This document shows, one piece after another, positions 27,027 to 61,812 of a stretch of DNA of 64,000 nt. Below the pieces are notes generated by a model. The model saw only the letters and a list, made by a program, of their open reading frames with translations. It made no database searches and was not told where the DNA came from. This DNA is from an uncultured delta proteobacterium. Its GTDB lineage: Bacteria > Desulfobacterota > Desulfobacteria > Desulfobacterales > Desulfosalsimonadaceae. The stretch lies in NCBI GenBank assembly GCA_963826785.1, contig CAWGYD010000002.1:22102-86101 (forward strand). The letters are read 5' to 3'. A program made the translations under genes and the position numbers. The stretch's first letter is position 1, and every line of letters begins with the position of its first letter.

Positions 27027-29123
27027 ATGGATAAGGACAATCCAAAACCACGAACGCGCATGCCGGAAAAATCCGAGAGTCAAAATGCCCTGCTAAAGCA
27101 GGAGATTAACCGTCGCAAGCGGGCTGAAAAACAATTGACGGTCGTAACCGAAGAATTAGAAGCTATTAAATCGGAGAGGGCTTCTTACAAGCAGAATACG
27201 GAGGAGGGATCTCGCTTTGATAAGCTGCTGTTGGATATCTCCGCACATTTTATTAATTTGCCGTCCGAACAGATAGATAATGAGATTATGGACGTCCAGC
27301 GCCAGGTTTGCAAATTACTGGGACTGGATCTGAGCACACTCTGGCAATGGTCGGATGATGATCCGGAAACGTATATTCTGACCCATTATTATCGCCCTTT
27401 GGGAGGGCCGCCGGTGCCTGAGAAGATGAGAGCAATCGATTTTTTCCCATGGAGCCAGCAAAGAATAAGGGAGGGCAGGAGAGCTACAGTTTCGTCCATG
27501 GATAATCTCCCTCCCGAAGCCGCCCGTGATAAGGAAACGTGGCGTCATTACGGCGTCAAGGCAAATGTGACAATACCGCTACAGCTATCCGGCGAGCAGG
27601 TTATCGGCGCTATCTCGTTTAACGACATGCAGTCCGAGCGCACATGGTCGGAAACGATTTTGCAGCGGCTCCATTTGGTTGCGACAATATTTGCCAATGC
27701 AATTGCCCGGAAATTCAAAGACCAGGACTTACGCGAGGCAGAGAGGCGTTTAAGAATGGCCACGGATGCCGCCAGGGCGGGTCTGTGGGGCATGGATATG
27801 GACACCGAAAAGGTCTGGGTGTCGTCGTCATTAAAAGAATTATTTTATTTTGCGCCGGAAGAAGAAGTGACTTATCAGAGTTTTTTGGGAAAAATTCATC
27901 CCGACGATCATGATCGGGTTCGTCAATCGGTAGAGCAGTTGGTTCATTCAAAGGAAAACCTGCACAGCGATTACCGGATTGTTCTTCCTGACGGACAAAT
28001 CCGGTGGATATGCGCGCGGGGAAAACTGCAACTTAAGCCGGATGGGAAATCGAGCCGGCTGATGGGTATTTCAGTCGATATTACCGACCGCGTGAAGATC
28101 GAAAACCAGCTAAAAGACCGTATCCAGGAGATTGCAAAACTGAAGAAACAGGTTGAAAATGAGAACCTCTATCTTAAACAAGAGATCAAGTTTATCGGTG
28201 AACATAGTAAGATTGTGGGTCAAAGCCTTGCCATGAAACGGATTCTGGCGGAAGCCGAGCAGGTCGCTTCCACGGATTCAACCATCCTTCTCCTTGGTGA
28301 GACAGGGACCGGCAAGGAGATGCTGGCCCGGTTCATTCATCAGGTGAGCAAACGAAAAAGCCGTCCGATGGTGACCATCAATTGTGCGTCTCTTCCCCCA
28401 ACTTTGATTGAAAGCGAGTTGTTCGGCCGGGAAAAAGGCGCTTATACCGGCGCTTTAACCCAGATGATCGGTCGTTTCGAAATCGCGGACGGGTCGACGC
28501 TTTTTCTTGATGAAATCGGCGAAATCCCGCTGGAGCTTCAAAGCAAACTGCTTCGGGTTCTTGAAGAAGGTGTTTTTGAGCGGCTGGGTTCCACAAAGCC
28601 TATCCACACCAATGCCCGAATCATCGCCGCCACCAACCGCGACTTGGAGAAGGAAGTGGCTGAGGGCCGCTTTCGAAAGGATCTTTTCTATCGGTTGAGT
28701 GTTTTCCCTATTTTGATGCCCCCACTTCGTGATCGTCCTGAAGATATCCCGCTGTTGGTGTGGTCCTTTGTCGAGGAATTTAAAATGCGGATGGGAAAGG
28801 AAGTCAACGCCATTCCATCAAAAAGCATGGAATCCCTTCGTTCGTATTCCTGGCCGGGCAACGTTCGAGAACTGAGAAATGTCGTCGAACATGCCATGAT
28901 CCTGTGCACCAATGCGAATCTGAGCATTCGGCCCCCGCAGTCTGGATTGGAGCAGCAAAACAGTTTGGATAAGCTGGTGGATATTGAGCGGCAGCATATT
29001 TTGTCCGCATTGGAGCGAAGCAACTGGCGGGTCAGCGCCACCGCCGGAATCCTTGGCCTGAAACGGTCGACCCTTCATTCCAAAATGAAGAAATTGAGTA
29101 TTTCCCGCCCCAACAACCCATAA
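27027..29123 (+). CDS. Sigma-54-dependent enhancer-binding protein (GAF-PAS-AAA+-Fis HTH)
   Basis: GAF-like region, PAS/PAC (IHPDD...DYRI..PDGQIRW), GETGTGKE, ESELFG..KGAYTGA, FLDEIGE, WPGNVREL, C-terminal HTH; no receiver domain. Confidence 0.95.
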   Translation: MDKDNPKPRTRMPEKSESQNALLKQEINRRKRAEKQLTVVTEELEAIKSERASYKQNTEEGSRFDKLLLDISAHFINLPSEQIDNEIMDVQRQVCKLLGLDLSTLWQWSDDDPETYILTHYYRPLGGPPVPEKMRAIDFFPWSQQRIREGRRATVSSMDNLPPEAARDKETWRHYGVKANVTIPLQLSGEQVIGAISFNDMQSERTWSETILQRLHLVATIFANAIARKFKDQDLREAERRLRMATDAARAGLWGMDMDTEKVWVSSSLKELFYFAPEEEVTYQSFLGKIHPDDHDRVRQSVEQLVHSKENLHSDYRIVLPDGQIRWICARGKLQLKPDGKSSRLMGISVDITDRVKIENQLKDRIQEIAKLKKQVENENLYLKQEIKFIGEHSKIVGQSLAMKRILAEAEQVASTDSTILLLGETGTGKEMLARFIHQVSKRKSRPMVTINCASLPPTLIESELFGREKGAYTGALTQMIGRFEIADGSTLFLDEIGEIPLELQSKLLRVLEEGVFERLGSTKPIHTNARIIAATNRDLEKEVAEGRFRKDLFYRLSVFPILMPPLRDRPEDIPLLVWSFVEEFKMRMGKEVNAIPSKSMESLRSYSWPGNVRELRNVVEHAMILCTNANLSIRPPQSGLEQQNSLDKLVDIERQHILSALERSNWRVSATAGILGLKRSTLHSKMKKLSISRPNNP

Positions 29124-29158
29124 TGCCGATATTAAGGCTTTTTGACGAAATATCGGCA
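29124..29158. promoter_or_regulatory. Tandem 16-bp imperfect palindromes (candidate EBP binding sites)
   Basis: TGCCGATATTAAGGCT-N3-TGACGAAATATCGGCA directly after the EBP stop codon. Confidence 0.6.
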
Positions 29159-29524
29159 AAAAGCTATTTCCCTCCAATTTTTAAAAACCTTTCATTTCTC
29201 AAAAAATCTTATTTAACGCAATCTGTTTATCTATGAAACTCCAGCAGCGCGTTTGGGGATCACTTTCTCCCCCCATTCGCAAAGGGGGGGCTCCGGGAGA
29301 GATTTGAATTCCGGCACGTCAAAATTCCTTGAAAACCCCCTTTCAAACTTTCAAAGGGGAACTTTTGTGCCCCATTTCAAAGAGAGTAAAATTACAAATT
29401 TATTGGAGTTATCCAGATAACCAGGTAACGCAATATCATTATAAATAAATGCCCCAGTTGGTTTCCGTCGGGTGTGCCTTTCGCTTAATATTTTCCATAT
29501 GGCAACAAACAGAGCCATATTAAA

Positions 29525-29559
29525 TGGCGATATTAAGCCATCTTGCTTAAATATCGCTA
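29525..29559. promoter_or_regulatory. Tandem 16-bp sites (candidate UAS of the left operon)
   Basis: TGGCGATATTAAGCCA-N3-TGCTTAAATATCGCTA, about 99 bp upstream of the -24 element. Confidence 0.65.
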
Positions 29560-29657
29560 CCCAATTGCTTTTTTTGCCTCTCCCAAGAATTCCATTCAAC
29601 TGAATATTTCAAGTAATTCAAGCGCATTATCAAATAATTTGGTTTTTATTTCCAAAC

Positions 29658-29673
29658 TGGCACATGTTTCGCA
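29658..29673 (+). promoter_or_regulatory. Sigma-54 -24/-12 promoter
   Basis: TGGCACATGTTTCGCA: GG-N10-GC with exact spacing, 112 bp before the first gene. Confidence 0.75.
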
Positions 29674-29784
29674 CCACATTTATCATATTCATGAATGCCA
29701 AATGATATTCGTCGGAAAACCGATAACATAGCTATTTTTTGACGACTTACGCATGATGTCAATCAAGCCAGAAAAAGGGCACCA

Positions 29785-30132
29785 ATGATCCATTCAAGCA
29801 TCAGAATGACAATATCCCCAAGAAAACGAACCGAAGCATTAAAAATCCTCAGAATGGCCGCAGAGTATTGTAAAATTCGGCCTGAGTGCCTCAGTTGTCA
29901 TATTTATGAGGATCTGGATGGAAAAAATACCATTCTGTTCACTGGAAAATGGCGGTGCGGAGAGGATTTTGAGCAATATCTCCGGTCGGATGAATACCGG
30001 AATGTCCTTCTCGTGATGGAGATGGCGGAAAATGAACCGGAGGTCCGGTTTGATGAGGTAGGCAGATCGACAGGGATCGAGACTATTGAAAAAGCAAGGA
30101 GATACAATCGAATTCAAAATGGGTCAGATTAG
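29785..30132 (+). CDS. Antibiotic-biosynthesis-monooxygenase (ABM) fold protein with CxxC
   Basis: ECLSCHIYED...W...YLRSDEY; paralog of 61208-61552. Confidence 0.8.
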   Translation: MIHSSIRMTISPRKRTEALKILRMAAEYCKIRPECLSCHIYEDLDGKNTILFTGKWRCGEDFEQYLRSDEYRNVLLVMEMAENEPEVRFDEVGRSTGIETIEKARRYNRIQNGSD

Positions 30133-30246: not shown

Positions 30247-30924
30247 ATGAACAAAAAACAAACAACACTGATTAAAATGGTTATCGCGCTGGCCCTAACC
30301 TGGACCTTAATTGGCTGTTCATCCCTGCAATCCAAGCCGGAAGGATCAGGTTTTTTGAAAGATTATTACCCCAAAATGGGACCGGGACCTGAAGGCGGCG
30401 CTAAGATGCGCTGGCTTGAGCCTGGCGTTGATTTTGGGAAATACAACAAGGTGATGCTTGACAGTGTTGTGTTCTATCTATCAGACGATTCCGAATACAA
30501 AGGCATTGACCCTGCAGTTTTAAAAGATTTGGCAGATAAATGCAATCTGGCGATTGTAAATGCGCTTAAAGACAAATACCCGATCGTGGCTGAACCGGGA
30601 CCCGATGTGATTCGACTCAAAGTCGCATTAACCGGCATCAAACAAAGCCGGCCGGTTCTCAGCGGGGTAACCTCGATTGTTCCTGTTGGTCTGGGAATCA
30701 GTATTATTAAAAGAGGGGCCACGGGATCATGGACCGGATCCGGGGCCACCAGCGCGGAGTTAATGGCGTTGGATTCGGCCAGCAATGAAGTGATCGCAGT
30801 CGCACATGATGATCAGACCGCCGGGTTTACGGAAAGATTTTCCAAGTACGGATCAGCTGATGATGCTTTTAAATTCTGGGCGGAAAGGATCCGGTATTTT
30901 TTAGATAATGCGCACCGCATGTAA
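30247..30924 (+). CDS. DUF3313 family lipoprotein
   Basis: Lipobox LIGC, SGFLKDY, PGPDVIRLKVALT, FWAERIR. Confidence 0.85.
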   Translation: MNKKQTTLIKMVIALALTWTLIGCSSLQSKPEGSGFLKDYYPKMGPGPEGGAKMRWLEPGVDFGKYNKVMLDSVVFYLSDDSEYKGIDPAVLKDLADKCNLAIVNALKDKYPIVAEPGPDVIRLKVALTGIKQSRPVLSGVTSIVPVGLGISIIKRGATGSWTGSGATSAELMALDSASNEVIAVAHDDQTAGFTERFSKYGSADDAFKFWAERIRYFLDNAHRM

Positions 30925-31054: not shown

Positions 31055-32464
31055 ATGAAAACTAAAACGCTTAAAGCGATCACCTGGTCACTTGCATTGC
31101 TGCTGTCAACGACTTTGACAGTGAATGCCCGGATGCCCGAAAAAATTTCAGTACAGGAAGCGCAGCAGATTGCAGAGGAAGCCTACATCTACGGCTATCC
31201 CATGGTGGACAGCTACCGCATCGAATACGGCTACTTCGTTGATAAGACCGACCCCGAATACAAGGGGGCGTGGAACGAGATACACAACATCCCGCGCGTC
31301 TACACCCCGGAGGACAAGGCCATTCAGACGCCCAATTCCGACACGCCCTATTCCTTTATCGGCGCGGATCTCCGGACCGAACCGCTCGTTCTGACGGTCC
31401 CGGAAATTCCCAAGGATCGCTATTATTCGATACAGTTCATCGACGCCTATACATTCAACTTTGCCTATGCCGGCAGCCGAACCACCGGTAACGAAGCGGC
31501 TAGCATCATGCTGGCTGGCCCGAATTGGAAGGGCGAGAAACCGCAGGGAATCAAGGAGGTCATCCAGTCCGAGACCGAGATAAACGTCCTTCTCTACCGC
31601 ACCCAGCTTTTCAATCCGGCCGACCTCGACAATGTGAAGAAAATCCAGTCGGAGTACAAGGTGCAGCCCTTGAGCCAGTTCCTCGGCCAGCCCGCGCCCA
31701 CCCCCGCCCCGGCCATCGACTACATCAAGCCGCTCAGCCAGGAAGAGCAGAAAAGCTCTCTCGAGGTGTTCAGTATCCTGAATTTCGTCCTGCAATTCTG
31801 CCCGACCGATCCGTCCGAGAAGGAACTCATGGAGAGGTTCGCCAAGATTGGCATCGGTGCCGGAAAGACCTTTGATCCCGCTGCGCTTTCTCCTGAGATG
31901 AAAAAAGCCTTCGAGGACGGTATTGGCGACGCCTGGAAAGAATTTGCGGACGGCGCGAAGTTATTGGGGGAAGGTAAAATTACCGCCGGCGATGTCTTCG
32001 GCACGCGCGCATCCATGAAAAACAATTATCTCTATCGCTGGCTCGCAACCATGGGCATCTGGGGAAATTCAAAACAGGAGGCGATATACCCTATTTATTG
32101 GACTGACGCCAGCGGCCAAAAGCTCAACGGCGCCAACCGTTATACGCTGCATTTCCCGAAGGGCCAACTGCCGCCCGCGCATGCGTTCTGGTCGCTCACC
32201 ATGTATCAGCTGCCGGAGAGCTTGCTGGTGGACAATCCCATCAACCGCTACCTCATCAACTCGCCAATGCTGCCGAAGCTGAAAATGGATACCGATGGCG
32301 GCCTCACGCTCTACATCCAGAACGAGTCACCCGGCAAGGAGCTGGAGTCCAACTGGCTTCCTGCACCCAAGGGACCATTCTCAGCTTATCTGCGCATCTA
32401 TTGGCCGGAAGCAGCTGCTCTGGATGGTACGTGGACCGCTCCGAAACTGGAGATGGTGAAATAA
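31055..32464 (+). CDS. DUF1254/DUF1214 exported protein (copy 1)
   Basis: Signal peptide; EAYIYGYP, TPNSDTPYS, FWSLTMY, NWLPAP, RIYWP. Confidence 0.92.
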   Translation: MKTKTLKAITWSLALLLSTTLTVNARMPEKISVQEAQQIAEEAYIYGYPMVDSYRIEYGYFVDKTDPEYKGAWNEIHNIPRVYTPEDKAIQTPNSDTPYSFIGADLRTEPLVLTVPEIPKDRYYSIQFIDAYTFNFAYAGSRTTGNEAASIMLAGPNWKGEKPQGIKEVIQSETEINVLLYRTQLFNPADLDNVKKIQSEYKVQPLSQFLGQPAPTPAPAIDYIKPLSQEEQKSSLEVFSILNFVLQFCPTDPSEKELMERFAKIGIGAGKTFDPAALSPEMKKAFEDGIGDAWKEFADGAKLLGEGKITAGDVFGTRASMKNNYLYRWLATMGIWGNSKQEAIYPIYWTDASGQKLNGANRYTLHFPKGQLPPAHAFWSLTMYQLPESLLVDNPINRYLINSPMLPKLKMDTDGGLTLYIQNESPGKELESNWLPAPKGPFSAYLRIYWPEAAALDGTWTAPKLEMVK

Positions 32465-32518
32465 TGGATTAGCGGATTGTTGTTCGGCATTTTTTATGAA
32501 CCGCCAAAAGGAGAAACT

Positions 32519-33943
32519 ATGAAACGAAATTTTCTCAAATCGGCGTTGGCGGTGGCCGTCATCGCCACCTCACTTACCGTCGGCATGCCCGTATCAGCGC
32601 AAGAAACGCAAAAGAAAACCGACTGGCGCGAGGATTACGCTTACACGCTCGGCGTGCAGGCTTACATCTTCAGCTTCCCGTGGGACTTTCTTTCGAAGAT
32701 TCAGTACCAATGGGTGGTCGTACCGGCCAAGAATCCCGCGCTGACCCCCAACATGCCGCTCAATCAGTGGTGGCACGCCCGCAACATCATCACTTCCGAC
32801 TACCGGGACGGTGGTGCGCCGAATAACGACACCCTCTACTCGGCAACGTGGCTGGATGTGGGCAAAGAACCCATCATCTTGAGCCATGGAGACATGGGCG
32901 ACCGTTACTTCACCTTTGAGATCGCCTCCATGAACTCCGACAACTTCGCTTATGTGGGCGCAAGCTCAACCGGATCCAAGGCGGGCCATTTTGCCATCAC
33001 GGGCCGGGACTGGAAGGGAACGCTGCCCGAAGGCGTGACGCAGTTGCCCCCGTCGCCTACCGACTCCGTCCTCATCCTCGGCCGCACCGCAGTCAGGGGG
33101 GCAGACGATGTCCCCGCGGTCAACAAGGCCCAGGACACCTATAAGCTGACGCCGTTGAGCCTCTGGGGCAAGGAGGGTGCCGTTGTTTCGGAGAATCGCG
33201 ACGTTCCCAAACCGTTCGATCCAAAAGCGGATCCACTTGCGGACTGGAAGACCATCAATCGGGCGATGGTAAAAAACCCTCCCCTCAAGCAACATGCGGT
33301 CCTTCTCGACATGTTCAAGCAGGTCGGGGTCGGACCCGGTCTGGATGTTGAGGCCATGGACGATGCGACCAAGCGTGGTCTGGCGCGTGCCGCCACAGAC
33401 GGCATGCAGATGCTTCAGTCCATGCTCGCAACCGGCCTTGATTTGCCCAAGGTCAATGGTTGGAGCGTTCCCCCGGCGACAATGGGCCGCGCCATGATTC
33501 ACAATGATTTCAATACACTGGCCCTCCAGTGTCTCGGCGGAATCATTTCCAACGATCCAAGTGAGGCGATTTATTTTAACACCCACGCGGATGCCGACGG
33601 CAATACTCTAAACGGGGCGAACAAATACACGCTCCGTTTTGCACCGAACCAGTTGCCCGACGTGAAGTATTTCTGGTCACTAACCATGTATGACCTGACC
33701 AATAACCTTGTGCCCAATCCCATTGACCGGTGGGCGATTGGTTCATTGGCCGGGGGATATCAGAAGGCGGCGGACGGCAGCCTGACGCTTTACCTGCAGA
33801 AGGATTCTCCGGGAAAAGACAAGGAGGCCAACTGGCTGCCTGCTCCAGAGGGGGAATTTTGGGTCGTGTTTCGCACCTACGGCCCCAGCAAGGAGATAGT
33901 CGATCAGACCTGGAAGCTGCCACCGCTGGAGGTAACGAATTGA
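32519..33943 (+). CDS. DUF1254/DUF1214 exported protein (copy 2)
   Basis: Signal peptide; PNNDTLYS, FWSLTMY, NWLPAP, RTYGP; start after AGGAGA. Confidence 0.92.
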   Translation: MKRNFLKSALAVAVIATSLTVGMPVSAQETQKKTDWREDYAYTLGVQAYIFSFPWDFLSKIQYQWVVVPAKNPALTPNMPLNQWWHARNIITSDYRDGGAPNNDTLYSATWLDVGKEPIILSHGDMGDRYFTFEIASMNSDNFAYVGASSTGSKAGHFAITGRDWKGTLPEGVTQLPPSPTDSVLILGRTAVRGADDVPAVNKAQDTYKLTPLSLWGKEGAVVSENRDVPKPFDPKADPLADWKTINRAMVKNPPLKQHAVLLDMFKQVGVGPGLDVEAMDDATKRGLARAATDGMQMLQSMLATGLDLPKVNGWSVPPATMGRAMIHNDFNTLALQCLGGIISNDPSEAIYFNTHADADGNTLNGANKYTLRFAPNQLPDVKYFWSLTMYDLTNNLVPNPIDRWAIGSLAGGYQKAADGSLTLYLQKDSPGKDKEANWLPAPEGEFWVVFRTYGPSKEIVDQTWKLPPLEVTN

Positions 33944-33981
33944 ATTCATTGTCAATGCAAGTAAACCTAATGGAGAGACAA

Positions 33982-34101
33982 ATGAACAAATTAAGACACG
34001 TACTTCTATGTGGCGCTTTATGCAGCGGCCTCGCTGCAGGGCTGCTAAGCGGCTGCGGGACGAATGGCGCCCCATCCGGGCTGCAGAACAAGACCGCGTG
34101 A
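33982..34101 (+). pseudogene. Orphan lipoprotein signal peptide (39 aa), a copy of the 5' end of the 36084 gene
   Basis: MNKLRHVLLCGALCSGLAAGLLSGCGTNG vs MNKSKPIFLFCALCCVFTVALSAGCATNG; upstream DNA also duplicated. Confidence 0.6.
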
Positions 34102-34120
34102 CGCGAGAAGGAGGTGGACA

Positions 34121-35128
34121 ATGGCGTTAAGTCTCAGAAGTTTGCTCGTTGTTGGTGCTCTGCTCGTTCATTCGGCAGGCTACGCTGCGGAGCTCGTCAC
34201 GGTCGACAACTTTGTTCGTGCAGAGACCGACAAAACCCTCGGCCGTTACGCAAAACAGGGAGCATTCGGTAAATTCCTACACATTCGTCAGCCGACGCCC
34301 ATCGACAAGCAGGATGTCGTCCGCATGAATCTGGATACGCTGTACTCGGTTGGCGTGTTCGATCTCACCACGCCGGTCACCATCGTGAAGCCGGAATCCG
34401 CAGGGCGTTTTCAGTCGATGATGGTCATCAATCAGGACCACTCGATGCTACCCATCGAGCATGGCGCGGGCGAGTTCACCTTCACGAAGGAACAAATCGG
34501 GTCGCGCTACATGATTGTCCTCTTCCGCACATTCATCGATGCAAACGATCCGGCTGACATCAAGGCCGCCAACGCCCTGCAGGACGAGATCGCTGTCCGG
34601 CAGGAGACCCCAGGAGCGTTTGAGATTCCGGAGTGGGATGATGCATCGTTAGCGAAAGTCCGGGATGCCATTAAGGTTCTTGCGGCGACCCGAACCGATG
34701 CCAAGGGCATGTTTGGTGACAAAGCAAAGCTTGATCCGATCAGTCACCTGCTGGGCACGGCCTACGGCTGGGGCGGAAATCCCGAAGAAGCCGCTATGTA
34801 CGACAACGCTGTGCCGGAAAAGAACGACGGCAAGACACCCTATGTGGTCACCGTCAAGGACGTGCCTGTCAACGGCTTCTGGTCTATTACCGTCTACAAC
34901 AAGGATGGGTATATGGAGAAGAACGACCAGAACGTCAATTCCTACAACAACGTGACCGCCAAAAAGAACGCGGACGGAAGCATCACGATCAATTTCGGTG
35001 GTGGCCCGGACGCCATCAACAACCTGCCGATCACTCCCGGATGGAACTACATCGTGCGGATGTATCAGCCGAAGAAGGAGATCATCAACGGTTCGTGGAG
35101 CTTTCCCAAGGCGCAATCGTTGGAGTAG
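34121..35128 (+). CDS. DUF1254/DUF1214 exported protein (short type, copy 3)
   Basis: VTVDNFVRAETD, RMNLDTLYS, GWGGNP, FWSITVY, RMYQP; AGGAGGT RBS. Confidence 0.9.
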   Translation: MALSLRSLLVVGALLVHSAGYAAELVTVDNFVRAETDKTLGRYAKQGAFGKFLHIRQPTPIDKQDVVRMNLDTLYSVGVFDLTTPVTIVKPESAGRFQSMMVINQDHSMLPIEHGAGEFTFTKEQIGSRYMIVLFRTFIDANDPADIKAANALQDEIAVRQETPGAFEIPEWDDASLAKVRDAIKVLAATRTDAKGMFGDKAKLDPISHLLGTAYGWGGNPEEAAMYDNAVPEKNDGKTPYVVTVKDVPVNGFWSITVYNKDGYMEKNDQNVNSYNNVTAKKNADGSITINFGGGPDAINNLPITPGWNYIVRMYQPKKEIINGSWSFPKAQSLE

Positions 35129-35197
35129 TGGATAGAGTGCGTGAACATTAGTAAAAAAACCACCGTCACAAGGCGGTAAACCAAAAGGAAAAGAATA

Positions 35198-36010
35198 ATG
35201 AAAACAATGACAACCATATCCGTGAAGACAATAGCACTGGCGCTTGCGCTTCTGGGTGCCATGACGCCGGCCTTTGCCGAACAGAAAGTTACCCTGAAGG
35301 ATCCCGTCAAGGTCGAGATCGAAAACTGGCGCGGCAAAGCCTTCTACGAAATTCTGTTCATGAACCGCCAGGCCGACGGCAGCGGGGTCGGTTTCTACCA
35401 CAATTCTCTTGGCTTAGACCTTGAAGCGTCGAACGAAGAGATGGACGCGCGCTTCCGCGCGCTGGATGCCGATACCTTGATGAAGGAATACGGCGGTGAT
35501 GGTGTCATCTTCAATGGTCCGCGTCGCCTCGTGGCGAACAGCATCACTGGGATAATCGCCTGGGATGGCGGCAAGAAGACGGTGATCGGAACGATCCCCT
35601 ATCGCGTGTTAGGCCTCTTCGAAACCCCTGACCTCGATAAGGCCGCTACCGGAGAAATGCCTGCTTATCATGTGCTGACCTCTAAACGCACCAATTCCTT
35701 TAAGTTCAATGCCGGCGAAACGGTGTATGAGCTGATCACCCCCGAGGGCACCGTCTACACCATGTTCAGTCTGTCCCTGAGGATCGACCCCAACAACACC
35801 ATCGAAAACCTGCCCACCCTTGGCGAGCGCCTGAAGAAATTACCGGAGGGTTGGAAATTCAGATCACGCAAGCTGGACAAGGAAATGATTCTGTCGTGCA
35901 CCGCCGATTCCAACCCGCCTAACACCATCGTTCTCGACGAGCTTGTGGGCAACTATCAGTACAACGCTGAAGCCAGCCAACAGACTATGAATCGGCCAGA
36001 TCACCCATGA
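35198..36010 (+). CDS. Exported hypothetical protein
   Basis: Signal peptide ending AFA; YEIL, NGPR, LPEGWKFRSR. Confidence 0.8.
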   Translation: MKTMTTISVKTIALALALLGAMTPAFAEQKVTLKDPVKVEIENWRGKAFYEILFMNRQADGSGVGFYHNSLGLDLEASNEEMDARFRALDADTLMKEYGGDGVIFNGPRRLVANSITGIIAWDGGKKTVIGTIPYRVLGLFETPDLDKAATGEMPAYHVLTSKRTNSFKFNAGETVYELITPEGTVYTMFSLSLRIDPNNTIENLPTLGERLKKLPEGWKFRSRKLDKEMILSCTADSNPPNTIVLDELVGNYQYNAEASQQTMNRPDHP

Positions 36011-36083
36011 TCGCTCCAGGCACGAGAGTTTTATTAACGAATTTAATTTATTGTAAATGCAAGTAAACCTCAAGGAGAGACAA

Positions 36084-38457: not shown

Positions 38458-38521
38458 GTTTGTGTCAAATTTCAGATGTATTCATTTAGTACCATTTTTC
38501 TTTAGACGGAGATTGAGTGAA

Positions 38522-39361: not shown

Positions 39362-39371
39362 GGCGGACGGA

Positions 39372-40319: not shown

Positions 40320-40351
40320 AAAAATTCATCGGCCAATAAAAAAGGAATATT

Positions 40352-45041: not shown

Positions 45042-45057
45042 TTGAAAAGGAGACGGT

Positions 45058-45471: not shown

Positions 45472-45503
45472 CCCTTGCTTTATTTATCGACGGTTTTCAT
45501 TAA

Positions 45504-46598: not shown

Positions 46599-46639
46599 AT
46601 ATGTCGCGAGCTTTTGATCCATACTTTAAAAAAACGTAA

Positions 46640-47260: not shown

Positions 47261-47320
47261 CCGGAACCGGCACATCATATGATCACGACACATATCCATT
47301 GCTGAATTTGGCATTATGAA

Positions 47321-50777: not shown

Positions 50778-50786
50778 TGATAAATT

Positions 50787-51854: not shown

Positions 51855-51864
51855 AATATTTCGC

Positions 51865-54545: not shown

Positions 54546-55624
54546 TTTATCCCTCCTCTTTTTCCGGGCATCCTTTCCATTCCCGGAACCCCCATGCGGA
54601 TCATTTTTGAAAAATCAGGCGCATTGTCTGCCGCCACCGCCTGTGGATTGATGCGGCTTTTTTGCTTGAGTTCAGCAAAAGGCAAAGAGGTGTCGATGAC
54701 TTTGTTCTCATACAGATGGCGGTCCGCAAATCCATTGACAATGATGGACCAGTGCCACTTTCCGCGGCCGGGCGCCGCATGCTGCCGGGCGAGACGAAAG
54801 GCGCTGGTCATGCAGTTCTGGGTGAGCGCATTATACCACTCCGGCTTTTCATGAAGCTGATTGATCCGGCTCAGATAGTCCATCAGGAAGCCACGGACAT
54901 TTTCCATGGATGCGGTCCGCAACCGATACAGGTATACGTCCTCCCCTTTCCGGAAATTGGTCCGGAGCCGGACCAGGTCCTTCTCATCACCGGCGATATA
55001 GATCAATTCATACTGCCGGAAAAACCCTTTCAGAGCGGAATACGATTCCCCGGCGTCCTTTCGCGTCTCAATGGAAAAGCAAAGGTAACGGTCATCCGCG
55101 AACCCGAAACTGACCATGGTGTGCGCGATATATTTCAATCCCCAGTCGGTCAGCATCAAATCGACACTCTTCAGCTTGGACAGGTCATATGTCCGCGTCT
55201 CAAAATGGGGGACGAAGTCTGTTTCGGTGACGTAATCGCAATTTCGGACATTGTGAACAACCACCCGGTCGCCTTCTATCTCGGCAAATGGCGTGGCGGC
55301 GACATCCGGCTGCCAGTTCCGGTCATTGGACGGCTGCATCAGAAAAAATGAAGCCAGCGGTATCAGAAATATCAGAAAGCCGAATAAAAGAATCCTTCTC
55401 CGGGGGGCGGCAAGAATGATGGCAAAATGAAGAAACGCATACAGGGCCGCCATGGACAGACAAACCCGGTAAGGCCAGCTGCCCCACCAGAGCGCCAAAA
55501 AGCCCCACAAAAAAAACGGCAGCAGTAGAACCGTATAAAAGATTCGGAACAGCCAATCCCTGCCATTTGAATGGGATGGCGTTTCGATGCGTCTGCCGGT
55601 TGTGGATTTTTTAGCGGTCTTCAT
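54542..55624 (-). CDS. DUF4105 (Lnb N-terminal-like) membrane protein
   Basis: 3 TMs, PSNDRNW, AHTMVSFGF, FFRQYEL, WYNALTQNCMT. Confidence 0.85.
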   Translation of the reverse strand: MKTAKKSTTGRRIETPSHSNGRDWLFRIFYTVLLLPFFLWGFLALWWGSWPYRVCLSMAALYAFLHFAIILAAPRRRILLFGFLIFLIPLASFFLMQPSNDRNWQPDVAATPFAEIEGDRVVVHNVRNCDYVTETDFVPHFETRTYDLSKLKSVDLMLTDWGLKYIAHTMVSFGFADDRYLCFSIETRKDAGESYSALKGFFRQYELIYIAGDEKDLVRLRTNFRKGEDVYLYRLRTASMENVRGFLMDYLSRINQLHEKPEWYNALTQNCMTSAFRLARQHAAPGRGKWHWSIIVNGFADRHLYENKVIDTSLPFAELKQKSRINPQAVAADNAPDFSKMIRMGVPGMERMPGKRGGIK

Positions 55625-55968: not shown

Positions 55969-56003
55969 AAGCCGGATATGACGAAATCATATCCGGCTTT
56001 TTT
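55969..56003. terminator. Strong hairpin / terminator
   Basis: aagccggatatga-cgaaa-tcatatccggctt followed by a T run on the + strand. Confidence 0.65.
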
Positions 56004-56015
56004 CAGTCCCGAGTT

Positions 56016-56366
56016 TCAGGGCTTATCAAATTTGATGACGTCCCCCTGGACTTCGGTTACCGCTCTGCTGAAAAGAATCCAGAATTCGGTATAATATTCG
56101 ACCGTCACATTGATCAGCGCGTCTCCACCCTTTTTACCGATGGCGGTCTCCATGGCATCACGGGTCGAATTTCCAGTGCTGATGGGGAAAATGCCCAGCA
56201 GGCGGATGGCGCTGTCCGTTCCCGCTGAAGGCCCCAGATTCGTGTAGCTGCGCCCCTCGATCGGAACCGTTGAAGGGGCGATGCCGCCGGGTACGGTCGC
56301 GCATCCGGCTATCATTGACACTAAAAACAAGAATAAGACGATACGGCCTGCCGATCTCAAAACCAT
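56016..56366 (-). CDS. Small lipoprotein (TRL-like)
   Basis: Lipobox IAGC, GGDALINVTVE, GAGGA RBS. Confidence 0.75.
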   Translation of the reverse strand: MVLRSAGRIVLFLFLVSMIAGCATVPGGIAPSTVPIEGRSYTNLGPSAGTDSAIRLLGIFPISTGNSTRDAMETAIGKKGGDALINVTVEYYTEFWILFSRAVTEVQGDVIKFDKP

Positions 56367-56403
56367 AATGCTTTTTCCTCCACTTTTAGATTTTTAGTCT
56401 TAA

Positions 56404-57624
56404 CTACCATTGGGTCCCGATGCCGAAAACAATCGCGTAATTTGTGGTATACTCTCCCTGGATTTCGCCCCCAGTCGGGATATCCTGGGTGAATTTGCCG
56501 TCACCGAATTGCAGATAGGTCAGGTCAAAGGAGATGCTTCGTCCTTTTCGAATTTGATATTCCAACCCCAGTCCGGTTCCCCACATGGCATCAAATCTTG
56601 AAAAAGCGGTGCGGTCCTCATCGTCCAGCGCCGAGGAGAGATAGAATACACCGCTCCTGGCGGTCCATACCGGCGTAAACGCGAAGTTGATGCCGAGCGA
56701 CGAACCCCAAATGTCCTGATAGTTGCCGGGGCGGCTGGAAATTTCAGAATCACCGATTTCAACATTTTCAAGACCCCACTCGGAAAAATCCACCCAGAGG
56801 AGATCAACTGAAAAGGACCATCCGCAGCCGATCTCGTGAAAAACTCCCGCGTTAACCATCTGGGGAGTGCTGGTGTCAAAGGAGATCGTCTGGTCGAGCG
56901 CACCGAACTGATTGAGAAGTTGTTTCCGTTCTTCGGTAAGCCCTGAAAAATCGGGATTTCCCTCATCTGTAATCGATATCTTTGACCGGTAGACCAGGCC
57001 GAAACGACTGTGCTCCGTCAATTCATAGAGCACCCCGAATGTAAACCCAGCCCCCCAGCCATCCGCATCCAGCTCCATGGAACCATCATTTGCCGCCGGA
57101 TCGAGATTGTAGACGGCTTTTTCAAATGTGTATTGCGAATAAGTGATCGGCACGGATGCGCCAATCGAGACTTTGTCATTGAACCGATAGGCGACCGATG
57201 GCGCAAGTCCGACAAAATTCAGGGACCATTCCTTTAAGAGATAGCGCCCCGCCCATTCGTCATCATAGGTTGATCCAAGCCCCGTGAATGCGGTCGGACC
57301 GATACCGATCGCCCAGCGTTCGCTCAGTGGACGAACGTAATAAAGCCCGGGCATGGCGACAAACGAATCATTGTCGATTTTCTCCTTCTGATCCGTGCCG
57401 CTGGCGCTAATCTCGGTGCTGCTTTTGGTGTATATGACCATTGGATTTCCATATATCGCCGGCTCATTGAAACGGGTCATGCCGGCGGGATTTCTGACCA
57501 CAGTTTCCGCAGAGTCTGCATTTGCCGCAATGCCCGAAAATGCAGGTCCCAATGCCAAAACAGTTGAAACCGGCGCCAGGAGCATGGAAACCGCACAGGC
57601 AATTACGGTCAGAATCTTCATCAA
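56404..57624 (-). CDS. OmpP1/FadL family outer-membrane hydrophobic-substrate channel
   Basis: Signal peptide, ADSAETVVRNPAGM hatch motif, PSVAYR, GLVYRS, terminal W. Confidence 0.88.
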   Translation of the reverse strand: MMKILTVIACAVSMLLAPVSTVLALGPAFSGIAANADSAETVVRNPAGMTRFNEPAIYGNPMVIYTKSSTEISASGTDQKEKIDNDSFVAMPGLYYVRPLSERWAIGIGPTAFTGLGSTYDDEWAGRYLLKEWSLNFVGLAPSVAYRFNDKVSIGASVPITYSQYTFEKAVYNLDPAANDGSMELDADGWGAGFTFGVLYELTEHSRFGLVYRSKISITDEGNPDFSGLTEERKQLLNQFGALDQTISFDTSTPQMVNAGVFHEIGCGWSFSVDLLWVDFSEWGLENVEIGDSEISSRPGNYQDIWGSSLGINFAFTPVWTARSGVFYLSSALDDEDRTAFSRFDAMWGTGLGLEYQIRKGRSISFDLTYLQFGDGKFTQDIPTGGEIQGEYTTNYAIVFGIGTQW

Positions 57625-57665
57625 TTTTCTCCTTTTCGCATTTATGGAGACCCCTTTCTGCGACT

Positions 57666-58148
57666 CTACATGAGTGGTATATGCGCTGCGGCATCAAATC
57701 GCACCACCGCCTGTATCTTATTTTCAAGCTGATAGTATCGGGCGACTTTCGTGTCCGGCAGGATCTCTCTGAACCTGGGCAGATAGGCCCTTCGAACATC
57801 GAGCATGTCGGCATCGATGGCGAGAAGATCGTTTAACAGGCTTCCGGCCTTTTCATCCGGAACTTCCGGGTAGCTGGCCGCATAATCGTCAATCAATTTG
57901 ACGTACCGGACGGCAACCGCACCCAGCGCTTCCTGGTAATCTTCGTATAACGGCCAGAATTTTTCAGCTTCCGCTTCCGTAAGACCCATGTTCACCGCAA
58001 TCAGCAGCTTCTTGTCCGCATTGATTTTTTCCCGGACGATCTGCATCGTATCGGCGGAGGCTTCATCTGCCGAGAATGCGGGAACGATCGAGAACACACA
58101 AGTTGCGATTAAAGTTGCCATGAGAATACTGATTAACCGGATTTTCAT
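57666..58148 (-). CDS. Exported helical hypothetical protein
   Basis: Signal peptide, LTEAEAEKFWPLYEDY, YYQLENK. Confidence 0.8.
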   Translation of the reverse strand: MKIRLISILMATLIATCVFSIVPAFSADEASADTMQIVREKINADKKLLIAVNMGLTEAEAEKFWPLYEDYQEALGAVAVRYVKLIDDYAASYPEVPDEKAGSLLNDLLAIDADMLDVRRAYLPRFREILPDTKVARYYQLENKIQAVVRFDAAAHIPLM

Positions 58149-58250
58149 CTTCCATCTCCTTTTTCATTTTCATTGGGGGTATTTCCAAATACACCCGCAC
58201 GCCAACCGTTCGGGCATTTTCAGATCGTTGTGATAAAACATCTTTTTTTA

Positions 58251-59528
58251 TCATTTCAGCCTAGCTCCGCCTAACCCCTTATAATCACCGGACAGGGCAA
58301 GTTCCTTTTCATCGGGGTCTGTAAAATTCTGTCCCACAAAACGACCCAGAAGTTTTAGATGTGCATTGATTTCAGGAAGCCGGATTTCCGGAAGCTGCAT
58401 CAACAAATCATCGAGCATGGCCCGGAGACGACGGACCACCTGGATACTTCCGGCGCCATAGTGAAGAATCTCACTCACAGCAAGCTGTACATAATCCTCC
58501 CAGTCCGGTGTCGGAAAGACACATCGAAGTTTGCCGTGCCGGTCCCGGAGCTCGCCATCCCCCAGATCGCGCTGCCCAATTTCGCGGAGCAGACGGTGCA
58601 ACTGATCAATGCAGGAAATCGCCGTGGTCGGATCATTTATCGCAGGCGAAAGGGCTTTAATGGCGATATCAACGATGATCCTTAATACAAAGCCCGGGTC
58701 CTGTTCGATCGTGCGTTCAATACTAAACGCCACACTATGGCGAAGATCGTTAAAACCTAAACATTGACCGCCCTTGTAAATGCTGAAAATCGGGTCACCT
58801 TTGGTGACGAAGTCTCCCATTTGTGGAATCAATCGGACCACGCAATTGTTTCGGGAGGCGATTTTAACCAATCCTTCCGGATCGAAAGCCATGATAATTC
58901 CGGATCCACCCTCATGATTGATCGTGCAGGAAGCCTTTCCCAAAAGGGTTTCAGATGAACGGGATACATCGGATTTTTCAGGTGACAACATCGCCGGATA
59001 AATCGTTTCGATAATTTTTGAGCAGGAATCCGCCAGTTCTTCGCAAATGCTGATGGGGCGAAGCGACTTGCCCATGTAATCCACAAATAAAAGAAAAGCA
59101 GCGATACTGGCCAGAGTAGAGACAATCATCACGAAGATTACCAGCTGCGGGACCGGATCTCCAAGTCGGCTGAGGGCAGCGATGGAGAACATATAGGTGA
59201 ACGTAAAGATGCCAAGTGTTATCTTTATACTCCGCCTGCTGAAGGCAAAGGCCATGATCCGTGGCGTAAGCTGGCCCACCGCAAGCTGGAGGGCGATAAA
59301 AAGCATGGACATTAAAAATACGATAAAGGTCAGCATCGCTACACTGATGGCGCTGGCAAGGGAGCGGGCGCTTTCAAGTGAAAAGTCGAGTAATTGCCAA
59401 TGCGCCCAGATGTCCAGTTCCCGTGCCAGTCTATGGAAGATTAACGCTATCACCACGCAAAGCATCGGCACCATCCAGAGGGAAGACTTTATTGAAGCTC
59501 TTAATTTATGCCGCTGCAGCCACGTCAT
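58251..59528 (-). CDS. DUF2254 family membrane protein
   Basis: QLTPR, ERTIEQDP, DIAIKALSPAINDPTTA. Confidence 0.88.
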   Translation of the reverse strand: MTWLQRHKLRASIKSSLWMVPMLCVVIALIFHRLARELDIWAHWQLLDFSLESARSLASAISVAMLTFIVFLMSMLFIALQLAVGQLTPRIMAFAFSRRSIKITLGIFTFTYMFSIAALSRLGDPVPQLVIFVMIVSTLASIAAFLLFVDYMGKSLRPISICEELADSCSKIIETIYPAMLSPEKSDVSRSSETLLGKASCTINHEGGSGIIMAFDPEGLVKIASRNNCVVRLIPQMGDFVTKGDPIFSIYKGGQCLGFNDLRHSVAFSIERTIEQDPGFVLRIIVDIAIKALSPAINDPTTAISCIDQLHRLLREIGQRDLGDGELRDRHGKLRCVFPTPDWEDYVQLAVSEILHYGAGSIQVVRRLRAMLDDLLMQLPEIRLPEINAHLKLLGRFVGQNFTDPDEKELALSGDYKGLGGARLK

Positions 59529-59553
59529 TGACCGTTCCTTTAAATTTATTTGT

Positions 59554-59892
59554 TTATTCGGCCTTAACCTGCCACGGCCATCGGCCATCGATTTCGACCA
59601 CCAGGGACCAGCTCAAAAAGGTCCGGATGATCACCAGAACCCCCAATACAGCGACACTCTCCAGAGTAGGCACCAATACGACCGTTCGAATGATATCGGC
59701 GGCCACCAGAAACTCCAGCCCGAGCAGAAGAGATTTGCCGATCATATCTTTAAAGCGTTTGTATGCTTCTTCGCCGTGCCGGCGGTATCGAAAAAAGTAG
59801 CGACCGATGCCGTAGATAATACCCCCTACAATAATCAATACTGCCAGGACCTCGATCCCCTGAGACATTCGCTCGACCAGCTCTCGAATCAT
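59554..59892 (-). CDS. DUF1622 family membrane protein
   Basis: LLLGLEFLVAADIIRT, IRTFLSWSL.VEI.GRWPWQ. Confidence 0.9.
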   Translation of the reverse strand: MIRELVERMSQGIEVLAVLIIVGGIIYGIGRYFFRYRRHGEEAYKRFKDMIGKSLLLGLEFLVAADIIRTVVLVPTLESVAVLGVLVIIRTFLSWSLVVEIDGRWPWQVKAE

Positions 59893-59903: not shown

Positions 59904-60269
59904 TTATTTGAACTGGGTATTGAGGGCACGATGGTCAAGGGTCGATGCCACTGGGAAGTGGTTGAACGGCAGGGACGCGCGCATGATCCGCAGAGAATCG
60001 CAGATGGAAAAGGGCTTTGCAAAACGGACCCATGCCTGATCGGCATCCTCGTCATCCAAATCGGTGAGTTCGCCGATGTCGTAGTTGTGAACATTGAAAG
60101 CGGTGAGATTCGCAAGCGGATTGTTTGCCCGGGCTTCAGCGCTCACCGCAGGTCCTTCCTGGGCACTTGCAGCGCCAGTCAGGCATAGAAATACAGCCAA
60201 AACAAGGGCGACGACACGCGCTGTGCTATCCACATGGTTCATCAGCATTTTTTGAATTCCCGTTTTCAC
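59904..60269 (-). pseudogene. Truncated outer-membrane barrel gene (related to 37651-38457)
   Basis: Signal peptide then ANNPLA...RFAKPF...RASLP; ends at 121 aa without a barrel C-terminus. Confidence 0.55.
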
Positions 60270-60426: not shown

Positions 60427-61098
60427 CTATTTTGCGCCATGCGCCTGGTCTAAAAAAACCCTGATCCGCTCCGCCCAGAGCTGAAACGCCGCTTCGGCAG
60501 ACCCATACCTGGAAAATCTATCCGTAAACCCGGCGGTCTGCTCATCACGCGCGACCATGATCACGTCGTTGCTCATGGAGTCGATTGCCATGAGTTCGGC
60601 ACTGGTTGCGCCCGAACCGGTCCAGGCGCCGGTTGCCCCTTTTTTAATGATGCTGATGCCCAGCCCGATGGGCACAATCGAAGTCACCGCACTCAGAACC
60701 GGTCTGCTCTGCTTGATGCCGGTCAAGGCAACTCTCAACCGGACCACATCCGGTCCCGGTTCAGCCACCACCGGATACTTGTCTTTGAGTGCATTGACGA
60801 TGGCCAGGTTGCATGCGTCGGACAACTCTTTCAACTGCACAGGATCAATGCCGTTATATTCCGAATCCTCTGCCAAATAAAAAACTACGCTGTCGAGCAT
60901 CACCTTGTTGTACTTCGAAAAATCGACCCCCTGTTCGATCCATCGCATATCCGCGCCGCCCGAGGGTCCCGGCTGCATGTTTTTGGCATAACCATTCAGA
61001 AATCCGGTGGGCTTTCCAGCCGATGCACAGGAAATCAACGTCAGCGCCAGAACGACACTGATGATGGCTTTTATGTGATGTCTTTGTATTGCTTTCAT
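60427..61098 (-). CDS. DUF3313 family lipoprotein (paralog of 30247-30924)
   Basis: Lipobox LISC; about 40 differences over about 190 aligned residues by hand count. Confidence 0.88.
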   Translation of the reverse strand: MKAIQRHHIKAIISVVLALTLISCASAGKPTGFLNGYAKNMQPGPSGGADMRWIEQGVDFSKYNKVMLDSVVFYLAEDSEYNGIDPVQLKELSDACNLAIVNALKDKYPVVAEPGPDVVRLRVALTGIKQSRPVLSAVTSIVPIGLGISIIKKGATGAWTGSGATSAELMAIDSMSNDVIMVARDEQTAGFTDRFSRYGSAEAAFQLWAERIRVFLDQAHGAK

Positions 61099-61207
61099 GA
61101 CGGCTCTCCTTGATTTCGTTTGTCGATTAATTCATTCCAATGATAAGAGACTCACCATTGGGTTGTATTGCGGGGTGGAGATGTCTGACAGGACGCCGCC
61201 GGGATGT

Positions 61208-61552
61208 TTATGTGGGATTCAGCCTGTTGGAATATCCTCTTGCCCTTTCAATGGTTTCAATCCCGGTGGTGTTCGAAATGATGTCAAATCGGATTTCCGG
61301 TTCCTTCAGGGCCATCTCCAGAACGATCAGTAAATTTCGGTACACTTCAGAGCGCAGATGCTGATCCATTTCTTCCCAGCTTCGCCAGGTCTCTCTATAC
61401 ATAAACAGGCCGTTTTCCTCTATATCCCCGTAGATATTGCAATTCAGGCAACCGCTCCGTATCCTGGACTGAACTGCTGTCGATTTTAGAATTTTCAATG
61501 CGGCATCGCACTTGTTCGGCGGTAACTCCATCATAAAGGTTGCAATGATCAT
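61208..61552 (-). CDS. ABM-fold protein with CxxC (paralog of 29785-30132)
   Basis: GCLNCNIY...W...HLRSEVYRN...EPEIRFD...TGIETIERAR; GGAGGTGA RBS supports the start. Confidence 0.82.
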   Translation of the reverse strand: MIIATFMMELPPNKCDAALKILKSTAVQSRIRSGCLNCNIYGDIEENGLFMYRETWRSWEEMDQHLRSEVYRNLLIVLEMALKEPEIRFDIISNTTGIETIERARGYSNRLNPT

Positions 61553-61666
61553 CAGTCGTATCACCTCCACTCGGGGTTGAAGTTTCACAATGCATTGAAA
61601 AAAAATATTTATCTTATCGAGGAAAGAGGGATCAGGCCCTTCTCGCCCATCTTACCAACACATAGA

Positions 61667-61681
61667 GCGAGAAACATGCCA
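61667..61681 (-). promoter_or_regulatory. Sigma-54 -24/-12 promoter
   Basis: Minus strand TGGCATGTTTCTCGC (GG-N10-GC), about 115 bp before the ABM start. Confidence 0.75.
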
Positions 61682-61776
61682 AGTCGGATGTTTAGGAATT
61701 TTAAAAATAATTGTCTGAATAATTGGATGATTCTGGAGGAGGGGGAAATATTCGGAGAATTGGCCATTGAACTTTG

Positions 61777-61812
61777 TGCTTATATATCGTCACGAGTGCC
61801 TTCATGTCGGCA
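61777..61812. promoter_or_regulatory. Tandem 16-bp sites (candidate UAS of the right operon)
   Basis: TGCTTATATATCGTCA-N4-TGCCTTCATGTCGGCA, about 96 bp upstream of the -24 element. Confidence 0.65.

Follow-up and report, generated by a model that had tools for sequence, protein, structure and literature searches.

A recurrent sigma-54 activator, enhancer, promoter and ABM unit at the heads of two convergent gene arrays in an uncultured delta proteobacterium

Introduction

The window analysed here is a stretch of 64,000 nucleotides from an uncultured delta proteobacterium of the Desulfosalsimonadaceae (GenBank assembly GCA_963826785.1, contig CAWGYD010000002.1, positions 22,102 to 86,101). It carries two convergent arrays of mostly envelope-related genes, which open with the same regulatory head: a pair of palindromic upstream activating sequences (UAS), a sigma-54 promoter, a gene for a protein of the antibiotic biosynthesis monooxygenase (ABM) fold and a DUF3313 lipoprotein gene. 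An earlier note, made from the letters alone, had read these arrays as a mirror-image regulon in which one ligand-sensing sigma-54 enhancer-binding protein (EBP) induces a system for a lipophilic compound or for envelope remodelling. The arrangement it described was confirmed with corrections, and its interpretation found partial support. The object of interest is a portable unit of activator, enhancer, promoter and ABM gene, not the mirror geometry or a lipophile pathway, and this unit is a real, well-defined and apparently undescribed variant of a known regulatory class.

The Activator and the Two Heads

The features of the two heads, in order along the window, are as follows (IHF, integration host factor; HTH, helix-turn-helix).

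27027..29123, + strand: sigma-54 EBP, GAF-PAS-coiled coil-AAA+(GAYTGA)-HTH (Pfam; FhlA-like)
29124..29158, + strand: UAS pair at the EBP stop codon (ancestral position), score 38.6, the genome's highest
29220..29426: repeat of ~200 bp with copies on three other contigs (blastn, 72-84% identity)
29525..29559, + strand: UAS pair, left head
29628..29640, + strand: IHF-like site, left head, 1 mismatch, 30 bp ahead of the promoter
29658..29673, + strand: sigma-54 -24/-12 promoter, left head, score 20.6
29785..30132, + strand: ABM-fold leader protein 1 with an extra C-terminal helix (Pfam PF03992; model, fold search)
30247..30924, + strand: DUF3313 lipoprotein a
60427..61098, - strand: DUF3313 lipoprotein b
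61208..61552, - strand: ABM-fold leader protein 2
61666..61681, - strand: sigma-54 -24/-12 promoter, right head, score 19.5
61708..61720, - strand: IHF-like site, right head, 1 mismatch, 39 bp ahead of the promoter
61777..61812, - strand: UAS pair, right head, pair score 33.4
61813..61846, - strand: putative stub of a lost activator gene, ten codons like the EBP C-terminus (nhmmer E 7.2)

Each head consists of two 16-bp palindromes, a GG-N10-GC promoter, the ABM gene and the DUF3313 gene. The gap between the UAS and the promoter 16-mer is 98 bp on the left and 95 bp on the right, and 111-113 bp lie between the promoter 16-mer and the ATG in both heads; the spacing reported earlier thus holds to within 1-2 bp. 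The reported identity of about 80% between the two pairs applies to the DUF3313 core (143/182, 79%) and not to DUF3313 overall (162/222, 73%) or to the ABM (51/114, 45%). The UAS pairs of both heads had been recognised, and a third, higher-scoring pair at the EBP stop codon had been overlooked. No promoter is found at the usual 100 bp from this third pair, and the repeat at 29220..29426 is likely an insertion which separated the promoter from its activator.

Site matrices were trained on 86 UAS/promoter pairs from outside the window (consensus TGCCGATATATCGGCA) with a pattern devised after the window motifs were known, so that the selection was not fully blind. When applied to the whole 4.4-Mb assembly, they returned exactly two complete units of UAS pair and promoter, both of which are the window heads, and the scores of both promoters and UAS pairs fall within the range of relatives. 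Scans for sigma-70 promoters stayed at shuffle level, terminator counts were barely above it, and no sense-strand terminator stood out convincingly. A 13-bp hairpin at 55969-55999 lies within the - array and has its T-run on the + strand; it could terminate antisense transcripts or work in both directions.

The EBP possesses an AAA+ domain (PF00158, 234 bits), in which the GAFTGA-type loop reads GAYTGA, and a C-terminal Fis-type HTH (HTH_8). F-to-Y variants of this loop are given as functional in the available part of one source (PMC4641369). The AAA+ loop, the HTH, the palindromes about 100 bp from a -24/-12 promoter and rpoN, which was found in the window's assembly, are all characteristics of a sigma-54 EBP regulon. 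A quick tree built from AAA+-HTH regions unites all 59 EBP rows linked to an ABM in a single clade (SH-like approximate likelihood ratio test, 99). Of the 28 EBPs of the genome included in this tree, the window EBP alone belongs to the clade and the other 27 lie outside; the clade-specific GAF is present once in the genome. As judged from sequence, the window EBP is the sole candidate activator in the assembly for both promoters, and the earlier claim of a sigma-54 regulon with two heads and one cognate activator stands on this tree and on rpoN.

The GAF domain was modelled with confidence (predicted local distance difference test, pLDDT, 93) and has a conserved set of pocket-lining residues. 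The Foldseek matches were generic GAF domains throughout, at 11-19% identity and for the most part bilin-binding, and the aligned bilin-Cys position carries no Cys. One Cys of the domain (C95) is conserved in 22 of 23 aligned rows.

Sensor domains differ within the activator superfamily. A sister clade (L145-L149, L037, L042, L044-L046, L050, L052, L055) is without GAF and has a PAS or a membrane-linked PAS; its heads have their own palindrome pair, 98-100 bp ahead of the promoter where matched, and an ABM as first gene, followed by FtsH, band-7, radical SAM and GT4/GH130 genes, and also by BON, CsbD and glycosyltransferase genes. A head of the sister type occurs in the window's own genome, at the end of contig C1 (L001:15500-20000), with tandem GGTCA-N4-TGACC palindromes and a promoter-like site with GA instead of GC at -12, followed by BON, CsbD, a third ABM and a glycosyltransferase gene; no activator of the sister clade was found in the assembly.

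Recurrence of the Unit in Other Genomes

Relatives of the ABM were collected from GTDB genomes (31 loci), from metagenomes (the best 80 of 199) and from a phylum sample of 400 genomes. The 119 ABM loci include some duplicates and close kin, and 103 have at least 450 bp upstream. An EBP gene ends within 800 bp upstream of the ABM in 86 of these 103, a sigma-54 promoter is present at 99 of 110 loci, and the gap between UAS and promoter is 96-101 bp in 92 of 95 loci with an allowed range of 85-114 bp. An IHF-like site (at most one mismatch) was observed in 44 of 90 spacers, 38 times at one position (-41), as against 7.8 in shuffled spacers (maximum 15). When loci were ascertained by the EBP, 13 of 29, among them 7 of the top 10, had an ABM no more than about 450 bp downstream. 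The unit recurs in Thermodesulfobacteriota, Acidobacteriota, Aminicenantes and NC10 and was also found in a single alphaproteobacterial genome; where the closest ABM relatives come from named genomes, these belong mostly to the Thermodesulfobacteriota. Activator, UAS pair at its stop codon, IHF-like site, sigma-54 promoter and ABM therefore very probably constitute a conserved unit.

The genes which follow vary. DUF3313 was the first gene after the ABM in 1 of 81 loci, and DUF1254 was seen in none of 32 dereplicated loci (of 38) that have at least 2.5 kb downstream, over a 10-kb span with automatic labels. Judged by this neighbourhood survey, the set of ABM, DUF3313 and envelope cargo, which had been proposed as the module, is not the conserved one.

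The full-text literature, with supplements (and any motif tables in them) outside the search, gave no account of the EBP-UAS-ABM unit, in agreement with the earlier note, which knew of no functional description of the module; nor did it give a function for DUF1254/1214 or DUF3313. In the main text of the Desulfovibrio vulgaris regulome paper, as far as available, monooxygenase, FhlA, sulfatase and rhodanese are absent, and the available part of a cross-phylum sigma-54 survey (PMC12316311) is without monooxygenase, YgiN and sulfatase. The unit gives a precise, testable regulon, with an operator consensus, a spacing, an IHF site, a promoter and an activator clade, in uncultured anaerobes where most sigma-54 activators are without known targets. 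Many DUF families of the envelope are linked to this one switch, as are a persulfide-reductase-type enzyme and a glycyl radical enzyme without assignment.

The ABM-Fold Leader Protein

The ABM was modelled as a dimeric alpha/beta-barrel (pLDDT 87) with Foldseek template modelling (TM) scores of 0.6-0.7 to many ABM structures. A conserved C-terminal helix lies outside the ABM domain and is absent from the matched part of the solved ABMs. The JGI annotation is YgiN, and no match was obtained with NCBIfam. The fold is that of YgiN-type quinol monooxygenases and a close sequence relationship is lacking: identity to the listed solved ABMs is 8-19%, and YgiN itself is at 13% and rank 50. C35 is conserved in 51 of 51 close relatives, and W56 and H65 in 49 of 51, with ABM1 carrying Tyr at the conserved His. 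The CxxC noted earlier is present in both window copies, but its second Cys (C38) is kept in only 34 of the 51 and is Tyr or Phe in the sister clade; a CxxC redox switch as the defining feature was rejected in its strict form.

It is a nearly even chance that the ABM is an ordinary cofactor-free enzyme of the YgiN/LsrG kind, for example a quinol oxidase, which would be the conserved core output of the unit with no effect on the activator. The barrel fold with TM scores of about 0.7, the conservation of W56 and H65 and the YgiN label are consistent with this, while the low identity, the Tyr in ABM1, the extra helix and the retention of the ABM in first position, whatever the cargo and in both clades of activators, argue against it. 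In the sister clade, the ABM stays the first gene although the activators are without GAF and the palindrome is different. As the ABM is kept across changes of cargo and sensor, a regulatory role is proposed, and we suggest tentatively that it may feed back on the activator as a partner, or serve it as a thiol sensor, and not be a pathway enzyme. If the leader does control the activator, a very common fold would gain a new role. The distances in mirror trees of EBP and ABM correlate (rho 0.87-0.92), as expected from linkage, and were not counted as contact. A model of the complex between EBP residues 58-698 and two copies of the ABM scored 0.00, the controls were not folded, and it was not used as evidence.

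The Arrays and Their Genomic Setting

Besides the heads, the arrays and the region ahead of them contain the following (GC3, GC content at third codon positions).

24504..24597, + strand: tRNA-Sec (selC; Rfam RF01852, 75.4 bits), directly after which the island-like region begins
24978..26565: mobile-element debris, an AbiEi-type antitoxin gene with IstB-like and HD-domain-like fragments
31055..37562, + strand: four DUF1254/DUF1214 proteins and one unassigned secreted protein (35198-36010), GC3 ~0.70
37651..40864, + strand: three barrel-type genes (one MetA-type by Pfam, one weak outer membrane protein match, one without family) and a small membrane protein
41029..44504, + strand: pqiA-pqiA-pqiB-pqiC
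44550..46598, + strand: glycine-zipper protein, small secreted protein and alpha/beta hydrolase
46600..47300, + strand: frameshifted transposase remnant breaking the left array (from translations)
47321..49888, + strand: large MscS-family channel
49950..51968, - strand: bestrophin-like (DUF4239) gene, GC3 0.76, and coiled-coil protein
52584..55624, - strand: DUF4105 (Lnb_N) protein and lipoprotein alpha/beta hydrolase, overlapping
56016..59892, - strand: DUF1622, DUF2254, 160-aa secreted protein, FadL-type barrel and small lipoprotein
59904..60269, - strand: truncated barrel-type gene (no family match; likeness by eye)

The + genes from 29785 to 49888 and the - genes from 61552 to 49950 converge with a 61-bp gap, in the order and on the strands described before. 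Nearly all of the envelope labels given to the cargo were borne out by Pfam or NCBIfam; of the four barrels, the one at 38462 has a weak Pfam match and the one at 37651 no family match. The notion of intact operons is contradicted by scars at 46600-47300, at 59904-60269 and at 51970-52560, where the right array has a broken gene. We take the transposase remnant to be of the IS4 type. The AbiEi-type gene was labelled by Pfam AbiEi_4; the IstB-like and HD-domain-like fragments have no family match and are presumably what their translations look like by eye. The DUF4105 and hydrolase pair also adjoins the switch unit in two other loci (L018, L028).

A direct repeat of 141 nt (77%), at 33933-34073 and 36035-36175, covers the leaders of two DUF1254 genes and is the remnant of a local duplication. 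Repeats of the integron type between the cargo genes were rejected, as only repeats of paralogous genes occur. An 864-aa DUF1254/DUF1214 protein is encoded elsewhere in the genome (L001:1228-3822), where its neighbours are a Fic gene and a disrupted gene for an RND pump; no switch unit lies upstream. A radical SAM gene at 62050-62976 on the - strand, upstream of the right head, has a GC3 of 0.46 and a YydG-type epimerase as its best, sub-threshold match.

The window takes up the final 64 kb of a contig of 86 kb, whose end coincides with the window's far end, in an assembly of 4.43 Mb that is 88% complete. Housekeeping genes occupy the window up to ~24.5 kb, before tRNA-Sec; dnaA and dnaB are among its genes (5532-6896 and 3-1271), which places the island within ~20 kb of dnaA. 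In five family-level relatives the alignment to the window reaches tRNA-Sec and stops short of the arrays. The spread of the ABM unit is patchy: 8 of the 400 genomes of the phylum sample have a close ABM, and 24 members of the family gave no match that scored near the window's own. GC3 across the array genes is a mosaic from 0.43 to 0.76. Patchy spread, the start at tRNA-Sec, scars and mosaic GC3 fit a genomic island, and the region of the arrays is likely an island remnant which starts after tRNA-Sec. Of the usual marks of a tRNA-anchored island, the start at the tRNA 3′ end, the patchy distribution and the mobility remnants are present. Two others were not found: there is no integrase among the scanned window ORFs, and no repeated att site marks a far end, as tRNA-Sec has no repeat longer than 18 nt in the assembly, where the contig stops before any far boundary. 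No structured RNA other than tRNA-Sec was found in 22000-64000, and 72,556 plasmids gave zero ABM matches. At the contig end (window 63600-64000), GC climbs from ~0.33 to 0.65-0.74 and the sequence is fused to a bestrophin-like fragment; this is possibly a chimeric assembly end.

A related question is how far the heads reach. It is rather unlikely that the heads are real while the island decays, such that the promoters serve only the first few genes and the distal ones are separately expressed or silent. The left array runs for 20 kb and is broken by a 723-bp transposase scar before MscS, a repeat was inserted near the left promoter, the right array has truncated genes and an activator was lost; nevertheless, every intact gene keeps the orientation of its head, promoters and UAS pairs score like those of relatives, and no sense-strand terminator interrupts the arrays convincingly. 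Such decay is compatible with the explanation preferred below.

Genes Behind the Unit in Relatives

In 81 loci, the first gene after the ABM is most often a coenzyme A disulfide reductase (CoADR)-rhodanese gene (28), with 18 unlabelled. Within 10 kb of the 32 dereplicated loci, CoADR-rhodanese occurs in 17, SulP in 10, a sulfatase label in 4 and DUF3313 in 2; any sulfur-type label is found in 24, envelope genes of the window's type in 17 and both in 13. Family scans of the cargo covered 131 and 76 proteins, subsets of the unlabelled ORFs. The closest solved relatives of the CoADR-rhodanese enzyme are CoADR-RHD and CoA-persulfide reductase (E 6e-142 to 8A56), and in the available part of one report an Enterococcus faecalis enzyme of this type reduces CoA persulfide under CstR control (PMC9405070). 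A thiosulfate reductase operon follows the ABM in L027, with PhsA above the NCBIfam cut-off. In L155, sulfatase, SulP, DUF1622, two barrels, a glycine zipper and DUF3313 share one array, so that the window's cargo pool and sulfur genes stand together behind one head.

The genes behind the unit elsewhere make sulfur or redox stress a likelier signal than a lipophilic substrate. That the unit is a general switch for envelope or survival stress with a non-sulfur signal (acid, osmotic, energy, oxygen), the sulfur enzymes being part of the stress pool, is unlikely in our judgement: MscS, the bestrophin-like channel, PqiABC, efflux pumps and enzymes of glycogen, glycolysis and the pentose-phosphate pathway would suit it, as would the BON, CsbD, FtsH, band-7 and glycosyltransferase genes of the sister clade and the variable sensor domains, yet the persulfide-reductase type is the commonest single first cargo, and SulP, sulfatase, rhodanese and PhsA recur.

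The proposal that one ligand-sensing activator controls a dedicated system to take up a lipophilic compound, handle it in the periplasm and hydrolyse it is very improbable: the FadL and MetA-type barrels, PqiABC, two alpha/beta hydrolases and DUF4105 are all in the arrays, and phospholipases A1 and D, patatin and MlaA also occur behind the heads of relatives, but neither array has a catabolic core, cargo set and order differ in every examined relative, the same activator clade and palindrome front unrelated cargo, GC3 is uneven and scars break the arrays. DUF4105, which would support it, is described as a lipoprotein acyltransferase family in the available text of one source (PMC12994826). Envelope remodelling by the window copy is possible.

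As to DUF1254, 42 of the 400 phylum genomes have it, 40 of these without a close ABM match; at the genome level the link to the unit (2/8 versus 40/392) is not convincing, both cases being physically linked within 13 kb, and 14 of 16 fetched DUF1254 neighbourhoods are without a complete unit. In L169 (13100-13500), a variant palindrome pair and promoter precede two DUF1254 genes and a sulfatase, without ABM; the first gene there is presumably anaerobic-sulfatase-maturase-like, to go by its motif.

Two proteins recur beside the persulfide-reductase-type gene: one of ~175 aa without Pfam match in 13 loci (L003:5059-5580 and relatives) and an SsuA/NMT1-like one of ~387 aa in 15 loci (L008:10431-11627 and relatives). 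An unassigned glycyl radical enzyme stands with phosphofructokinase, an activating enzyme and SAM synthetase behind the head in L008, L017, L030, L033, L065 and L094; all NCBIfam scores of this set are under cut-off, the best activase match being the sulfopropanediol dehydratase activator (341 versus 430).

Origin of the Two Heads and Proposed Mechanism

The stop codon of the stub at the right head stands in the same register to the UAS as that of the left EBP, and the 20-nt arms are 90% alike. This in-register stub suggests that the right head is likely a whole cassette which lost its own activator; the mirror symmetry, taken earlier as design, is then likely the incidental layout of two cassettes in one island. 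ABM1 groups with a 66% identical metagenomic protein, which is encoded there in the order activator, ABM, DUF3313 and glycine zipper. A recent duplication of the heads was rejected by 45% ABM and 74% DUF3313 nucleotide identity. Both heads are probably driven by the window EBP.

On balance, we favour an island remnant with two copies of the switch unit, one EBP driving both arrays, likely on a reactive-sulfur or thiol-redox signal. In established biology of bacterial EBPs (bEBPs), a signal received by the GAF/PAS region would allow the AAA+ domain to form oligomers on the palindromes; the spacer would be bent by IHF and the sigma-54 promoter opened by ATP hydrolysis. The right copy, having lost its activator, would be activated in trans. 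The cargo of the window may be an accreted subset of a shared accessory pool of barrels, DUF lipoproteins, PqiABC, channels and lipid-acting enzymes, and the output in this genome an envelope adjustment by a collected, partly decayed gene set. Most relatives appear to put genes for persulfide reductase, SulP, sulfatase or thiosulfate reductase first. The ABM, as the first product at each firing, might act back on the activator or sense thiols. Taken separately, reactive sulfur or thiol redox as the signal is plausible from gene content, though somewhat short of probable. A further idea, that the ABM family are dedicated partners of the FhlA-like activator superfamily in a self-limiting two-gene switch, where the operon's first product senses the thiol/persulfide state and acts back on the activator and where the enhancer at the activator's stop codon makes the unit portable to a place ahead of any cargo, is speculative and unlikely to hold in full. 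If true, it would be an undescribed control system for sulfane sulfur or redox in anaerobic sediment bacteria, in which clade-specific palindromes let paralogous switches coexist.

Several points weigh against the favoured explanation. Taken alone, the activator stub is a weak match (E 7.2). ABM2 is not the sister of ABM1 in the best trees, but a tree joining them, as an old duplication of the head in place would give, was not rejected (approximately unbiased test, p 0.17). With an assembly 88% complete and a contig which ends 2.2 kb past the right head, a second activator could be missing. An ABM is missing in 16 of the 29 EBP-ascertained loci. In the tally of 24 sulfur-type loci, L018 and L109 are weak matches, the label of L008 is an SsuA-like protein far under cut-off and the sulfatase of L020 was missed; the loci are also related and many come from similar habitats. 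Non-sulfur cargo is common (glycolysis and pentose-phosphate genes, efflux pumps, porins, phospholipases, glycogen enzymes), and the glycyl radical enzyme with phosphofructokinase is plainly non-sulfur. Genes for persulfide reductase, SulP and sulfatase are lacking from both window arrays, and the CoADR-rhodanese and sulfatase genes which the genome does possess lie on other contigs, away from any complete unit; the case for a sulfur signal thus derives from relatives. For the thiol role of the ABM, the first Cys is shared with unrelated ABM structures and C38 is incompletely conserved.

Comparison with Known Systems

The closest known activators are FhlA and HyfR of E. coli, which gave the best NCBIfam match and are likewise GAF-containing one-component sigma-54 activators with upstream palindromes. 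The window EBP differs in its GAF-PAS layout, in the UAS at its own stop codon and in arrays without hydrogenase or formate genes; FhlA has a two-GAF layout and its own targets. Orthology with FhlA was rejected, since the NCBIfam FlhA model gave 377 bits against a cut-off of 830 and matched residues 351-694 only. No formate hydrogenlyase targets were found in either array or in the first-gene tally of relatives.

In the available text on FisR of Acinetobacter and Cupriavidus, this sigma-54 activator of pdo-sqr-tauE serves reactive-sulfur clearance (PMC7315123), similar to the signal logic proposed here. As described there, FisR is divergent from its oxidative persulfide dioxygenase and sulfide:quinone oxidoreductase genes, whereas the unit is co-directional, is led by the ABM and has the reductive CoADR-rhodanese as its usual first cargo; gene content sets the window locus apart from the FisR type (PMC7315123). 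No pdo-sqr operon was found in the window or among the scanned cargo proteins. The coaP-rhd operon of Enterococcus faecalis resembles the relatives of the unit in having a CoA-persulfide reductase with a rhodanese domain; in the accessible part of its description it is under CstR, a CsoR-family repressor, and not sigma-54, and its enzyme is absent from the window arrays (PMC9405070).

The window ABM shares its fold and the G-C, W and H-x-x-S positions with YgiN, LsrG, MM_1583 and PA0709, and differs from them in low identity, the extra C-terminal helix and the fixed place behind a sigma-54 promoter. Several bEBPs are tuned by a co-encoded partner, such as PspF by PspA, NifA by NifL, DhaR by DhaKL and FhlA by HycA, and the proposed feedback of an operon product on its activator would be of this kind; we know of no such pair with an ABM-fold partner. 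Among more distant activators (L183-L207), many have tandem palindromes just past their own stop codon, with a different sequence in each and with or without an ABM. This appears to be a family-wide layout, which merits a survey.

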